Part shown: piece by piece, positions 19,298 to 60,955 of the stretch | Layout of the letters: each line of letters opens with the position of its first letter | Position numbering within the stretch: position 1 is the first letter of the stretch | Source of the DNA: a phage | NCBI GenBank assembly: GCA_032986305.1 | Contig: GCA_032986305.1_3672.1 | Reading direction: 5' to 3' (one strand) | Length of the DNA stretch: 64,000 bases | The notes under the pieces: model-generated | Seen by the model: only the letters and a program-made list of their open reading frames with translations | The model's database searches: none | What the model was told of the DNA's origin: nothing | Made by a program: the position numbers and the translations under genes

Positions 19298-19386
19298 CGC
19301 GTTCTCCTGAGAAAATTCCTTAGGACTATTTTAACACTTTAGAGAACAAAATGCAAGAACGGAGTCCTTTCCGTTCTGACCTTTGT

Positions 19387-25625: not shown

Positions 25626-25693
25626 GTCACTCCTCCGGTATGAAAATCTCTACAAGGTATTTTACCAAATTTTGTAACAATAGTCAATCTGAG

Positions 25694-31138: not shown

Positions 31139-31200
31139 TGTGCCTCCCGGTTAACAATTATGATAGTTATTTTACCAGATTTTAAGTTAATACGCAATAC

Positions 31201-43109: not shown

Positions 43110-45452
43110 TTACCAAAGATCTGTTGACATAAAGTTAATATCTTTGTTATTCTCCCACTCAAGTTTTGCATCAAGTATTTTGCTAAACTCCCCCTCATCT
43201 ATTGAAATCGTGATTTTGCCATCACTGATCTCTAAAGGTAGCATTTCCATAGTTCTTAATTGAGAAGCAAAACCAGGACCACCCGGCAACGGAAGAGTCC
43301 CTCCCGGTAAGGTGTCCAAAGGATCAACAAACCCGTTACCTCCCGATATGATATCTTTGCGAATCATATCGCTGATAGTATCCAGTTGCTGATTTCTCTC
43401 ACTCAGCGGGTTGAAACGGTCATTAAATAACTCCCCGGCACTTAATATTGTACCGATAATACCAAGCTTCCCAAGCAGGCCAACTTTACCGCCAGGTGTC
43501 TTGAGGCCACCTCCCCCTTTTCCTGCCGCACCACCACCACCAGATCCTTCTGTGGTAGCTGCACCTGCACCTGCTGCTCCAGCTGCGCCTCTTATAGAAC
43601 TAAGGAATTTGAAGGTTTTTACAAGCATAGATGCCATGACAAAACCTTTTGTCAGGGCGTTCACTACCAGCATGATGGCAGCAGCAAACCCTGCCCATTT
43701 AGCATAGCTAAAGGTGTCATTAAGCTCTTCAGAATATTCCTTCGTCTTAGCTGTTATGAATCCCCATTTAATCCCCCATTCAAGGAAAAACATGCGGATC
43801 TTGACTATGGTATTGTTTAGTTCACCAACTACCCAGTTGAGGCCTCTCATAAACCCGCTAACAAAATCACCAGAGGCATCCCACACAAATTGCAAAGTCT
43901 CACCTGTGCGAATCAGTGTATAATAGAACTCTGTTAATTCATCAGCCCAACGGGTGAACAGCTTCTGACGAGATAGTTCGATGAAGGTTTTCAGCCTGTT
44001 TTCTGCCAGTACGTTAGACTTCTGCATTCTTTCATAACCAGCTGCAGATGCCTCGTTCATGTACTTAGCCACATACTTCATGATCTTGGCTGTTTTAACC
44101 TCACCTTTCTTCATCATGTCCATGAACTGATCCATGGATAGTTCAGAAAGACCAAAAGCCTCTTTGGTGGCTTTGATAAAAGGTTCGTATGCACCAGGCA
44201 ATGCTTCAGCAAGTTGTTGCTTCAGTTCTTCGGACATTACCTGTCCTTTACCGAGCATTTGCTGGATTGCCATGATGCCACGCTGGTATTTTACCTCATC
44301 GGCACCGTAAGCAGCAGCATACTGTGAGTATGCAGAGAATAGCTCATGCACCTCTTGATTTGTCATCTGGTTTTTGGCGTTTACCGCCATCTGGGCGTAA
44401 CCTTGAAGACCAGATTTGAGATCAAAACCAAGACGCATAGCCTCTTGCTGGACAAACGCAACCTCACTGTTGGCTTTGTTTGGATCTCCAGTAACAGCAG
44501 TAAGAGCAGCACTTGCCCCCTCCATCATGTGACCAGATCTGTTCACAGCAGTAAATCCAGAGAAAGCCGTATACGCAGCTGTTGCATTAATAACAGATCT
44601 ACGTAAGTCTCTCATGGCATCGCCTAGTGTAAGCGTTTGGCTGGTGGCGCTTTTAAATCCAGACTGCAGCGCTGACAGGTGGGCGTTAAAGGTTGACTTT
44701 TTCATCTCCCCGCGAGCAAACCTGGACTCTAACTCTGAGTATCCTGGCAAGCTTCCACGGAATCCGGCTCCATACTTGGCAGAAAGTCTTATCGCAGAGT
44801 TGTAGAGGTGGGTTCTCCTTGCCTCACGATCCGACATAAGCCTATTATCCATACCAGCTTTACTGTCTCTTCTTAGCTGTCTATGATAACGATTCATAGC
44901 GGCTGTTTGAGCTTTCACAAGGTTAGGGTCGGAAGCCACACCACCCATATTAGGGTTACCTGGGATATACTTGAAAGATTTGGCATTAGCCAGAACTCTT
45001 GCCTTGGGTGCCTTATAACCGCCGTAAGACACTGGTGTAGATTTGGCAGCCTTTTTGGCCTCTTTAGCTTGCTGCTGGTAGAACTTACGCATCCTAGCCA
45101 TTTCTGGATTTTTAGCGGTAAGATTACCCACAGCTTGTTTGCGTCTCGCGTTCTCCCTACGTTCTATTGCAGCCCTTACTGCAGCCTCTTTCTTGGCTTG
45201 TGCTACGCTCTCCCTGTGCAGTTTAGCATTTGCCTGAGATTGCTGTCTGGCAACCCGTTGCATTGTTTGCTGGGTTTTAACAGCCACTGCCTGCCATCTA
45301 CTCATTGGGTTGGCTGAGTTAAAATCCTCGCCAAGTTTCCTGAACTCCCTCCCAATACTGCGAATTTTCTCTACAGCTTTTTTGTAGGAGGAGTTCTCTA
45401 TCTCAAAGCCAATCTTGTTGACTGTTGTGGCAACTATTTTGTTTGTAGCCAT
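43110..45452 (-). CDS. tail tape measure protein (780 aa)
   Basis: Alpha-helical/coiled-coil N-terminal two thirds, Gly-rich hydrophobic segments near the C-terminus (GGGGAAGKGGGGLKTPGGKVGLLGKLGIIGTILSAG); follows the chaperone genes. Confidence 0.7.
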   Translation of the reverse strand: MATNKIVATTVNKIGFEIENSSYKKAVEKIRSIGREFRKLGEDFNSANPMSRWQAVAVKTQQTMQRVARQQSQANAKLHRESVAQAKKEAAVRAAIERRENARRKQAVGNLTAKNPEMARMRKFYQQQAKEAKKAAKSTPVSYGGYKAPKARVLANAKSFKYIPGNPNMGGVASDPNLVKAQTAAMNRYHRQLRRDSKAGMDNRLMSDREARRTHLYNSAIRLSAKYGAGFRGSLPGYSELESRFARGEMKKSTFNAHLSALQSGFKSATSQTLTLGDAMRDLRRSVINATAAYTAFSGFTAVNRSGHMMEGASAALTAVTGDPNKANSEVAFVQQEAMRLGFDLKSGLQGYAQMAVNAKNQMTNQEVHELFSAYSQYAAAYGADEVKYQRGIMAIQQMLGKGQVMSEELKQQLAEALPGAYEPFIKATKEAFGLSELSMDQFMDMMKKGEVKTAKIMKYVAKYMNEASAAGYERMQKSNVLAENRLKTFIELSRQKLFTRWADELTEFYYTLIRTGETLQFVWDASGDFVSGFMRGLNWVVGELNNTIVKIRMFFLEWGIKWGFITAKTKEYSEELNDTFSYAKWAGFAAAIMLVVNALTKGFVMASMLVKTFKFLSSIRGAAGAAGAGAATTEGSGGGGAAGKGGGGLKTPGGKVGLLGKLGIIGTILSAGELFNDRFNPLSERNQQLDTISDMIRKDIISGGNGFVDPLDTLPGGTLPLPGGPGFASQLRTMEMLPLEISDGKITISIDEGEFSKILDAKLEWENNKDINFMSTDLW

Positions 45453-45506
45453 GCTTTCCTCATAATAAAAAGGGCCAGATCCCAGAAAAGGAATCCGGCC
45501 CTTAGA

Positions 45507-45755
45507 TTATCCTCTCCTGCGTTTAGCTTTCGCAGCAGCTGCGGCAGCCTTCTGCTCCCGCTCCATTTCCCTGTTTTGGACGGTATCTAGGAATTCTTCG
45601 ATATCAAGATACTCACAGAGCTTCAGGAAATACGCCATATCTGCAAGATTTAGCGATTCAAAATTTTCCCCTTTGAAATTCTTGAGCACCCTGCACCAAA
45701 GAAAGTCGAACCAGTTAAGTGAACTGTTCTTGGCTGCCCACTCACTGGCCCTCAC
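45507..45755 (-). CDS. hypothetical protein (82 aa), possible chaperone extension
   Basis: ORF in the -1 frame relative to the upstream chaperone ORF and open across its stop; no convincing slippery heptamer found. Confidence 0.35.
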   Translation of the reverse strand: MRASEWAAKNSSLNWFDFLWCRVLKNFKGENFESLNLADMAYFLKLCEYLDIEEFLDTVQNREMEREQKAAAAAAKAKRRRG

Positions 45756-45766
45756 AACAACCTTGC

Positions 45767-46240
45767 TTATTCCTGCTCTTCCGGAGTCTGATCCAGATTG
45801 TTCACCTGCTGGATCATACCCATCTGCTGTAACATCTCCAGAAGGCTTCCTAAACCGTCTTGTGTGAAAAAACAGCCGTAGTTAACCTCCAGAACCTTAC
45901 CTGCCAGCTTAATCATCTCTAGCAGATGCCCTGCAAACACAACATCAGGGTTAAGCTTATCCACACCATCCACGGTAATATCTTCGAACAAGATTTTAAA
46001 TAACTCTTCAATAGAGTTGTCATCAAGTTCTTGGAACAGGTAAGCCAGGGCTGTAGGAAGGACCTCTGCCATATTCTGACCGCCTGAGAGAATAGATCCA
46101 CCGATAGCACCTAGCGGGACAGCCACAATCTTACCGATTTTAGGCATGTTTTTCATTGCTTTCATCGGTCCCCAGTGGGTGATCACAAAGTTGTGCCCTG
46201 CTAAATCAATCTCTGTTGTAGGTCTAAAATTTATAGCCAT
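45767..46240 (-). CDS. tail assembly chaperone (putative)
   Basis: 157-aa protein with acidic C-terminus, between tube and tape measure genes. Confidence 0.5.
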   Translation of the reverse strand: MAINFRPTTEIDLAGHNFVITHWGPMKAMKNMPKIGKIVAVPLGAIGGSILSGGQNMAEVLPTALAYLFQELDDNSIEELFKILFEDITVDGVDKLNPDVVFAGHLLEMIKLAGKVLEVNYGCFFTQDGLGSLLEMLQQMGMIQQVNNLDQTPEEQE

Positions 46241-46283
46241 TTTATAGCATCCTTATTAGTCATGTTGTGCACCATATTTGTGT

Positions 46284-46312
46284 ATTTTACCATGATTATG
46301 GTGCATTGTCAA
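46284..46312 (-). promoter_or_regulatory. sigma70-like promoter overlapped by an inverted repeat
   Basis: Minus strand TTGACA, 17-nt spacer, TAAAAT; the spacer and -10 are embedded in the inverted repeat tgcaccata (46268-46276) / tatggtgca (46297-46305). Confidence 0.5.
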
Positions 46313-46351
46313 TTTAACCTTTCAAGCAATTCAAGAACGTGTGTCAAAACC

Positions 46352-46384
46352 ATAAAAGCAAAAAGCCCCACCCGAAGGTGAGGC
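46352..46384 (-). terminator. rho-independent terminator after tube gene
   Basis: Minus-strand hairpin gcctcacc-ttcg-ggtggggc followed by TTTTTGCTTTT. Confidence 0.6.
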
Positions 46385-46402
46385 TTATGCTAAAGTGTGC
46401 CC

Positions 46403-46876
46403 TTAGATAATACCTGCAAGACCTGCGAGGCCAGTAAGAGCACCAGTGATGTTATCACGGTTGAGCCATGCATCCAGAATACCGATATCCCAGTCCAATT
46501 GACCTACTTCGGTTCCGTAAGTCAGGTCAGGCTGTTTCTGGATCCAACCAATTGTGGAAATACCAGGACCCTGGCTACCTTCCAGCAGAACCGGGAAGAA
46601 TACCAGGCCAGTAATCGATGCCTGTTTCTGCCAGTCAGAAAGGTAAGCGTTCCATACAGAAGTGTTCTGCAAAGATACAGTCATAACACCAGATTGGTTA
46701 CGAGACAGGGCCGCAGACATTTCGCCATCCACACCAACGTGAGGGTAGATGTTATCTTCATTTCTTGAAACAACGATCTTGGTGTCAGCAGCGAAGCCAG
46801 TGACACGCTGCTGCATCAGGTACAGTTTGACCTTTTTAGGGTCATAAGCATAAGGAGTTAAAATTTGAGTTTCCAT
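46403..46876 (-). CDS. tail tube protein (putative)
   Basis: 157-aa protein immediately after the putative sheath gene and before a strong terminator; assignment by synteny. Confidence 0.5.
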   Translation of the reverse strand: METQILTPYAYDPKKVKLYLMQQRVTGFAADTKIVVSRNEDNIYPHVGVDGEMSAALSRNQSGVMTVSLQNTSVWNAYLSDWQKQASITGLVFFPVLLEGSQGPGISTIGWIQKQPDLTYGTEVGQLDWDIGILDAWLNRDNITGALTGLAGLAGII

Positions 46877-46886
46877 CTAGTCTTCC

Positions 46887-48263
46887 TTATTCAGTCATTG
46901 CAACAGCATTGGTGGATTTAGAACCAACTTTGTCCAGAAGGACGTTGATCCGGATACGAACGAAGTGCAGGGCGTTGTTATACACCAGTTCTACTTTCAC
47001 ACCTTCCAGAACACGAGCAGCCAACTGATTGGTTGGGATCTCTGCACGTTTAGGAACTGTGATGATCGGGTCGTAGAACACATTGTTGTCTTCGTCAAAA
47101 CCTGTCAGGATCGCGCCATTCTTAATGCCAGTATTGATCGGGTTGTTCATCAGAACAGACTTGATAACCGGAAGATCATCATCAGACATCTTCATGCTTA
47201 AACCCATATTAGAGCGACGATGCATGTACCCAAACATAGATTCTTCAGATCTGAACTTGATCCAGTGTGCAAAACGAATAGCGTCTGCATACTGACCTGA
47301 AGCACACTTGCCTTCCCAGAAAGCGCCAACACCGTTAATCATTCTGTAGAAGTTAACGTGGTTTTCCCAAATCGCCATACGCTGAGTTAAAGTCAGAGAT
47401 GGTGCAATCACACCAGGCATCTGTTTTAAATGCAAGCTGTCGCCATAGGACGGATCGTTAGATGCCATAGCGCCTATGATACCACCCTCTGGAAAATCTT
47501 TATCAGCACGAGGATCGTACATGCCAACACTGTCATATTGTGCAGCCATCAGTTTGGTGGCGATGTTATTATCTTTACCCGTCACATCTTCTGCAGTAGA
47601 GTAGACATGCAGCTTGTAGTTAGCCTGAGCCCACTTAGCACATGCTTCAATGTCGGTGTGGTCTTCATGGCACAGGAAGTACCAATTGTCACGCTCAGCA
47701 TTGATCTTATCAACTACTGTAGAAGGTTTTTCAGCATTGGCGATATTTTTGATTGTATAGTTACCAGTATGGTAACCAACAGTACAGTCACCAGTGATGG
47801 TGATAACACCATCGGCAGCCTCTACAGTGATATCGTCCAAGTTATCATCTGCTTCGATCTTAGTCTTCATTGACTCTGCAATCTGAGTTGCACCTGTTCC
47901 ACCAGAGATAGGTACTATCAAAGAAGTATTGTAGCTACCTTTTGCAATAGTCATTACGACATCGGTATCAGCTGCGGCAGCAATACCTTTAAAATCTACA
48001 GTGGTCTTTTCTTTGGCCTGTCTGCCGATCATAACGTATTGTGGAGGGAATACACCACCAAAAGCTTTTGCTGCAAACTCATACGCTGCAGAGCCTTGTG
48101 CGAAACCATCTTCCACCATCTGATCCAGCTCTGCATATACGCGAGCTCGCTCAGTAAAGTTGTTGTGGATAGCGATGAACAGGGGAGTTTCGAAACCTAC
48201 AGTGTCAATAGGCTGGGTTCCGAGGTTAACTGTAACATCTACCACTTTATCTAAATATGGCAT
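46887..48263 (-). CDS. tail sheath protein (putative)
   Basis: 458-aa protein with strongly biased codon usage, located between neck genes and tube gene; contractile tail supported by gpV-like spike and gp25-like protein; no direct motif confirmation. Confidence 0.5.
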   Translation of the reverse strand: MPYLDKVVDVTVNLGTQPIDTVGFETPLFIAIHNNFTERARVYAELDQMVEDGFAQGSAAYEFAAKAFGGVFPPQYVMIGRQAKEKTTVDFKGIAAAADTDVVMTIAKGSYNTSLIVPISGGTGATQIAESMKTKIEADDNLDDITVEAADGVITITGDCTVGYHTGNYTIKNIANAEKPSTVVDKINAERDNWYFLCHEDHTDIEACAKWAQANYKLHVYSTAEDVTGKDNNIATKLMAAQYDSVGMYDPRADKDFPEGGIIGAMASNDPSYGDSLHLKQMPGVIAPSLTLTQRMAIWENHVNFYRMINGVGAFWEGKCASGQYADAIRFAHWIKFRSEESMFGYMHRRSNMGLSMKMSDDDLPVIKSVLMNNPINTGIKNGAILTGFDEDNNVFYDPIITVPKRAEIPTNQLAARVLEGVKVELVYNNALHFVRIRINVLLDKVGSKSTNAVAMTE

Positions 48264-48335
48264 TTGTTTCCTCTTAATATCTGTGCACGGATATCAAACA
48301 CGCAGTGTAATCATTACACTACACAATTATAACGA

Positions 48336-49799: not shown

Positions 49800-49840
49800 T
49801 AATGTATTTTACCACAAAGATACATCAAAAGCAACAATTT

Positions 49841-54294: not shown

Positions 54295-54361
54295 CTTATT
54301 CCCCATGTGGATTATTTTATCACGCCAAAGGAGGTTTTGCAACCCCCTGTGTTGATAATTT

Positions 54362-55971: not shown

Positions 55972-56020
55972 GTATCTCCGATTACTCTATTCTACCACAT
56001 CTAATTAAGATTGGCAACAC

Positions 56021-60926: not shown

Positions 60927-60955
60927 ATTTTATCATAGCAAATACTGATTGTCAA
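60927..60955 (-). promoter_or_regulatory. sigma70-like promoter
   Basis: Minus strand TTGACA (60950-60955), 17-nt spacer, TAAAAT (60927-60932). Confidence 0.55.

Follow-up and report, generated by a model that had tools for sequence, protein, structure and literature searches.

Promoter P51 of Vequintavirus phages and the inverted repeat that surrounds it

Classical palindromic operators, such as lambda OR/OL and lacO1, have half-sites about one helical turn apart, both of which are conserved, and they usually recur at co-regulated promoters. Among the sigma-70 promoters of Escherichia coli, the extended -10 class is characterized by the element TGnTATAAT. The late promoters of phage T4 (TATAAATA; gp55, gp33, and gp45) have an A/T-rich -10-like element at sites before structural genes and no -35 element. 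For phage rV5, Kropinski et al. (2013; Virol J 10:76, PMC3606486) listed a promoter, P051, in Table S4 among the sigma-70 promoters, as AAAGGTTAAATTGACAATGCACCATAATCATGGTAAAATACACAAA; in the same table it is also one of eight putative late promoters obtained with MEME, which share the motif TggTAaAAtA (Kropinski et al., 2013, PMC3606486). The RefSeq record NC_011041 carries the element at 48291..48319 as 'Sigma70-type promoter; P51', and the record of phage Gotham contains an independent PhagePromoter prediction at the same position. P51 is already published and annotated, and hence is not new. The published rV5 table (Kropinski et al., 2013) is silent on an inverted repeat at this promoter.

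Here, we analyzed P51 in a 64,000-nt stretch of phage DNA (GenBank assembly GCA_032986305.1, contig GCA_032986305.1_3672.1), referred to as the window. The window is a genome segment of a Vequintavirus, an rV5-like lytic myovirus of E. coli with a genome of ~137 kb, and the 1.5 kb round the P51 site (query 45400-46900) showed 98–99% identity to more than 110 Vequintavirus genomes in the phage database. The element is the same as P51 of rV5 (NC_011041), with an identical sequence in an identical context, after t052 and before ORF51. Eighteen unannotated 'Campylobacter phage' records (MG0656xx series; host given as Campylobacter jejuni) are also ~98.5–99% identical to 45400-46900, and their host label looks doubtful. 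A sequence-only reading of the window had interpreted P51 as a late promoter controlled through an inverted repeat by a repressor or an activator. We compared this interpretation with the operators and promoter classes described above.

Gene context and elements of P51

P51 lies within a series of minus-strand tail genes. Their arrangement, in the direction of transcription, is as follows.

46887-48263, minus strand: tail sheath gene
46403-46876, minus strand: tail tube gene, homologue of rV5 ORF52 (from the ORF list; annotated in relatives as tail tube or virion structural protein)
46363-46386, minus strand: intrinsic terminator after the tube gene, rV5 t052 (10-pair stem with 6 GC pairs, then a T-run)
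46284-46312, minus strand: promoter P51, within the 162 nt that separate the tube gene from the chaperone gene
45767-46240, minus strand: tail assembly chaperone gene, homologue of rV5 ORF51 (ATG at 46240), the first gene downstream of P51
45872-45866, minus strand: -1 slippery heptamer T_TTT_TTC in the chaperone gene (in frame, codons TGT TTT TTC)
end at 45507, minus strand: overlapping -1 frame ORF, open for ~120 codons past the heptamer
45470-45503, minus strand: terminator after the chaperone pair, rV5 t050 (14-pair stem; entry in Table S4 of Kropinski et al., 2013)
43110-45452, minus strand: tape-measure gene, with its ATG only ~17 nt past t050

The tube-gene terminator is also annotated in the Gotham and Murica records, and as t052 its energy has been given as -18.3 kcal/mol (Table S4, Kropinski et al., 2013, PMC3606486). 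Its hairpin (46386-46363) stands ~50 nt before P51, confirming the earlier placement of the promoter just past a terminator. Together, the slippery heptamer and the open -1 frame correspond to the G/GT-type programmed frameshift that is usual in chaperone genes of this kind; in some relatives, the second chaperone ORF is annotated as a separate small gene. Because t050 stands before its ATG, the tape-measure gene can be reached only by read-through.

The elements of P51 and the two arms of the inverted repeat are located as follows.

46312-46307, minus strand: -35 hexamer TTGACA, as read in the sequence
between -35 and -10, minus strand: spacer of 17 nt, ATGCACCATAATCATGG
46305-46297, minus strand (~-28 to -20): left arm of the repeat, TGCACCATA, within the promoter spacer
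46284-46292, minus strand: extended -10, TGGTAAAAT, with TG at 46292-46291, one base upstream of the hexamer
46292-46283, minus strand: rV5 'late' motif, TGGTAAAATA, which is the extended -10 plus the next base
46289-46284, minus strand: -10 hexamer TAAAAT, a 5/6 match to the -10 consensus TATAAT
46277, minus strand: inferred transcript start, an A, 7 nt past the -10 hexamer in standard sigma-70 geometry
46276-46268, minus strand (~+2 to +10): right arm of the repeat, TATGGTGCA, in the initial transcribed region
46241-46276, minus strand: predicted 5' UTR of the chaperone mRNA, with the Shine-Dalgarno sequence AAGGA at 46254-46250

The promoter reported earlier (TTGACA, 17 nt, TAAAAT on the minus strand) is exactly what the window contains. 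Its hexamers and 17-nt spacing give an 11/12 match to the sigma-70 consensus, with the TG in addition. P51 thereby has the features of sigma-70 extended -10 promoters, namely hexamers with 16–18 nt spacing, the TG, and an intergenic, downstream-oriented position with a conserved core. It shares TTGACA, the 17-nt spacer, the TG, and five of the six -10 bases with the TGnTATAAT class of E. coli, but its -10 is TAAAAT rather than TATAAT, and its activity and start are predictions. P51 had also been called the best promoter in the window; its quality bears this out, but it shares that rank with a site at 60955 (rV5 P074) that likewise consists of TTGACA, 17 nt, TAAAAT, and TG. We conclude that P51 is strongly predicted to be a promoter of near-consensus sequence, with transcription inferred to begin at 46277, whereas its 'late' timing is an assumption from gene context only. 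The literature searched contained no transcript start mapping or expression data for rV5-like phages.

The promoter scan listed no divergent plus-strand promoter inside the inverted repeat. Downstream of the predicted start, the P51 leader is predicted to be unstructured (fold of 46278-46200, -5.7 kcal/mol, z = +1.18), and the Murica record annotates a ribosome-binding site in it.

The late motif and its -35 elements

Kropinski et al. (2013, PMC3606486) located eight occurrences of the motif ahead of late genes 27-66 and likened it to the T4 late consensus. P51 could on this basis be a phage-specific late promoter, at which a phage factor reprograms the host polymerase to read TGGTAAAATA, in the manner of the T4 late promoters, and the -35 and the repeat are secondary. 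The distribution of the motif is in keeping with such a role, as the window has four exact copies of TGGTAAAATA, each of which lies on the coding strand and precedes a structural gene. With one mismatch allowed, the following seven sites were obtained; the -35 hexamer of each is given after its coordinates.

25658-25667, minus strand: motif site, TTGACT
31168-31177, minus strand: motif site, TTGCGT
46283-46292, minus strand: motif site of P51, TTGACA
49805-49814, minus strand: motif site, TTGCTT
19327-19336, minus strand: motif site, TTGCAT
55988-55997, minus strand: motif site, TTGCCA
54313-54322, minus strand: motif site, TTGCAA

All seven are preceded by TTGnnn, mostly TTGC, at exactly 17-nt spacing, and this spacing together with the TG at the extended -10 is ordinary sigma-70 architecture. 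The T4 late promoters and the rV5 sites have in common an A/T-rich -10-like element before structural genes. However, the T4 promoters have no -35 requirement, whereas every strong rV5 motif site has TTGnnn at 17 nt; the -35 of P51 is perfect, and its six siblings all carry the TTGnnn. Moreover, no homologues of T4 gp55, gp33, and gp45 were found in rV5 (Kropinski et al., 2013, PMC3606486), and both P51 and P036 were picked up as plain sigma-70 promoters as well (Table S4, Kropinski et al., 2013, PMC3606486). We therefore regard a reprogrammed, T4-like late promoter as unlikely at this site. Judged by its sequence context, the rV5 'late' motif is best interpreted as an extended -10 that belongs to sigma-70 promoters of the ordinary kind, whose -35 is of the TTGC type.

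The inverted repeat and its conservation

A 9-bp inverted repeat flanking the spacer and -10 of the promoter had been noticed before, and we found it exactly as described: the arms are perfectly inverted, with 20 nt between them. Its dyad symmetry overlaps the -10 and the start site, a property shared with lambda OR/OL and lacO1. A dimeric phage or host regulator bound to both arms might block or activate the polymerase and so time the expression of the chaperone and tape-measure genes. Such an operator is attractive for further reasons. Early repression would plausibly be required for a consensus sigma-70 promoter that belongs to a late module, and rV5 encodes a small protein annotated as a transcriptional regulator (ORF158) and a protein with a GntR-like N-terminus (ORF79). 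However, the half-site centres are 29 bp apart, or ~2.8 helical turns, which does not place them on one face of the helix and differs from the spacing of the classical operators.

The length of the repeat also argues against an operator. In the window, 15 k-mer hits were obtained for perfect 9-mer inverted repeats with loops of 3–40 nt, as compared with 11.1 ± 4.0 in first-order Markov shuffles. When 80-nt windows were drawn at random from the rV5 genome, 1.07% held a perfect 9-mer inverted repeat, which makes the probability of one or more cases among the 37 listed rV5 promoters ~0.33. The repeat is within chance expectation for its length and is not statistically remarkable.

Recurrence of the repeat elsewhere in the genome had been put forward as a check on the operator, and we searched for it with 0–2 mismatches per arm and gaps of 0–40 nt. 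P51 is the only place in the complete 137,947-bp rV5 genome at which the two arms occur as a pair. With 0 or 1 mismatch per arm, neither the window nor the whole rV5 genome contains another pair, whether inverted or everted; when 2 mismatches per arm are allowed, the raw count is 43 pairs besides P51. Exact half-sites were found at three other isolated places in the rV5 genome, as compared with ~1 expected, and they are not enriched at promoters. Furthermore, none of the six sibling late-motif promoters upstream of structural genes shows flanking dyad symmetry.

We considered the TGCACC core common to P010, P051, and P224 as a shared motif and rejected it (3/37 promoter regions vs. 1.9 expected; P = 0.30). 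A by-eye comparison with the CRP, Fur, and LexA consensus sites gave nothing convincing and carries no weight. With regard to the other rV5 promoters, perfect inverted repeats of at least 8 bp occur in 6 of the 37 promoter regions and in 4.7% of random 80-nt windows, so that promoter regions are somewhat enriched in them. Several promoters of the early region (P107, P144, P168, P174, P185, P192, and P194) have GC-rich leader hairpins ~10 nt past the -10 (e.g. GGCGGGAAaacTTCCCGCC), and P150 and P121 have 8-bp inverted repeats bracketing the -35 hexamer or, in P121, the -35 and the spacer. All of these promoters lie outside the window. The 37-nt MEME window of Kropinski et al. for P051 extends from the first base of the left arm to one base short of the end of the right arm, which is a coincidence.

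We next turned to the conservation of the two arms, for which the window was aligned with 16 relatives (17 sequences), picked partly because they differ. Only four sites are variable in the ~96 nt of 46325-46230, from -48 to just past the start codon, and these four are adjacent, at 46301-46298, corresponding to positions 5–8 of the left arm. On either side of this block the sequences diverge: the 38 nt that separate the terminator from ~-49 contain 12 variable sites, and synonymous variation resumes in the chaperone coding sequence. The -35 TTGACA has no mismatch in any of the 17 sequences.

In the phage database, the 50 nt at 46243-46292, comprising the extended -10, the right arm, and the leader, are identical in 118/118 records. 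The 57 nt at 46262-46318 are identical, and the repeat accordingly perfect, in rV5 and in 107 of the 118 Vequintavirus records. Since 46262-46292 is invariant, the differences in the remaining 11 records fall in 46293-46318, and in all six of those examined they affect the left arm only. The six left-arm variants (TGCATCATA, TGCACTATA, TGCATTATA, TGCACCGTA, TGCACCACA, and TGCACAATA) carry one or two mismatches each; the right arm is unchanged, and none of the mismatches is compensated. One variant, TGCACCGTA, is present in four phages. Metagenome and IMG/VR scans, with a pattern that left both arms free, yielded 7 loci on 6 distinct contigs; with these included, three environmental contigs in all had a left-arm variant, and none had a right-arm variant.

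The strong conservation of the -35, -10, upstream, and 5' UTR sequences in 118 Vequintavirus genomes, together with the near-consensus elements and the intergenic location after a terminator, supports P51 as a predicted promoter. It does not support the operator. Both half-sites of an operator should be as conserved as their surroundings, but the left arm holds the sole variable positions of the conserved block and is its least constrained patch, the opposite of what an operator half-site leads one to expect. Although the repeat is perfect in 107 of 118 genomes, a left arm that drifts uncompensated, a unique site, siblings that have no repeat, and a length at chance level make the proposed repressor or activator operator very unlikely. 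The three differences from lambda OR/OL and lacO1, then, are the wide half-site spacing, the drift of one half, and the uniqueness of the site.

The constraint on the leader appears to be stronger than a ribosome-binding site alone would explain. Within 46243-46292, there are upstream AUGs at 46274 and 46262 and a 14-codon frame overlapping the chaperone start. One could also suppose that the invariant 50 nt and the usually matching left arm form the site of a hitherto undescribed phage regulator, tolerant of single mismatches, that silences P51 until tail assembly. We give this proposal little credence; if it were true, P51 would be a single dedicated control point for chaperone and tape-measure dosage in Vequintavirus.

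The repeat might act in RNA rather than in DNA. On read-through transcripts, the arms could pair as a 9-bp stem with a 20-nt loop and, ahead of the chaperone gene, act on the stability or processing of the RNA. Folding the local 51 nt gives this stem as the lowest-energy structure (-13.1 kcal/mol, z = -2.8). It is retained when 146 nt of context are folded, but that longer fold has no exceptional stability (z = -0.9). G-U pairs would preserve the pairing in four of the six left-arm variants (C to U twice, CC to UU, and A to G); the other two break the stem, TGCACCACA giving C-A and TGCACAATA giving A-G. The pattern is without weight, as two thirds of the possible transitions in a C/A-rich arm keep pairing by chance. 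In addition, transcripts from P51 itself hold the right arm only, the upstream terminator is strong, and there is no Rfam match, a scan of 45300-47000 having returned only sub-threshold chance hits. A functional RNA hairpin is thus scarcely to be expected here.

In Escherichia phage HMD-6 (PQ505080.1 73951-75576), a 541-aa ORF is inserted between the tube-gene terminator and P51. The insert corresponds to ~46335-46345 of the window, and the ORF stops a few bases before the -35; its only Pfam match is a weak one, below the cut-off, to the treble-clef zinc-finger domain DUF4379. P51 is intact in this phage, with the left-arm variant TGCACTATA. The insertion suggests that a mobile gene can be accommodated in the spacer upstream of -50.

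P51 among related genera and its proposed role

In the relatives of the genera Mydovirus, Seunavirus, Avunavirus, and Certrevirus, the spacer between the tube and chaperone genes is only ~75–80 nt long. It contains no promoter at the position of P51 and has a conserved structured element instead; the comparison of the arms for covariation was confined to Vequintavirus for this reason. The combination of terminator and P51 is therefore a Vequintavirus-specific arrangement. It also follows that the chaperone and tape-measure genes can be expressed without a control site at this position, as they are in these other genera of the Vequintavirinae, which is a further point against an operator.

The spacer element of the sister genera is highly conserved and consists of two hairpins with compensatory changes. 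The first, GCCACA..TGTGGC, is GUCACA..UGUGAC in phiTE. The second encloses the Shine-Dalgarno sequence and changes from ACGC-AGGA-GCGU to ACAC-AGGA-GUGU in 5 of 11 sequences, and covariation is also apparent in an outer pairing of the CGUGUG/CACACG type. This element may regulate translation of the chaperone gene.

Taken together, these observations make it likely that P51 is a constitutive, near-consensus host sigma-70 promoter that restarts transcription after the tube-gene terminator, and that the inverted repeat is incidental. In this model, transcription of the abundant sheath and tube genes would mostly end at t052. P51, ~50 nt further on, would then initiate another transcript, whose dosage would be set separately and whose leader is predicted to be short and unstructured. 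This transcript would encode the tail assembly chaperone pair, made via the -1 frameshift at T_TTT_TTC, and read-through of t050 would supply the tape-measure gene from it. The left arm, in the middle of the 17-nt spacer, would fall where polymerase reads a sigma-70 promoter least, and would be free to vary. The right arm would owe its conservation to the leader as a whole rather than to any partnership with the left arm, and presumably no protein binds the repeat.

Several points weigh against this model. A constitutive P51 would be a consensus host promoter before late tail genes, and the model offers no means by which their early expression could be prevented, should it be prevented at all. 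As for an incidental repeat, 107 of 118 genomes keep it perfect, and the one or two mismatches per variant could be acceptable to a tolerant DNA-binding protein; rV5 promoter regions as a group are, moreover, somewhat enriched in inverted repeats of at least 8 bp.

Had an operator at P51 been real, Vequintavirus would have gained its first described regulatory switch. The present analysis removes this tempting hypothesis as unsupported, which has little import beyond annotation, and assigns the 'late' motif of the rV5 group to what appears to be ordinary sigma-70 architecture. P51 itself is under strong purifying selection across more than 118 rV5-like phages, a group used in phage typing and therapy. 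With the terminator and P51, Vequintavirus has swapped the conserved structured leader of its sister genera for a different arrangement, providing a small, clean example of regulatory turnover.
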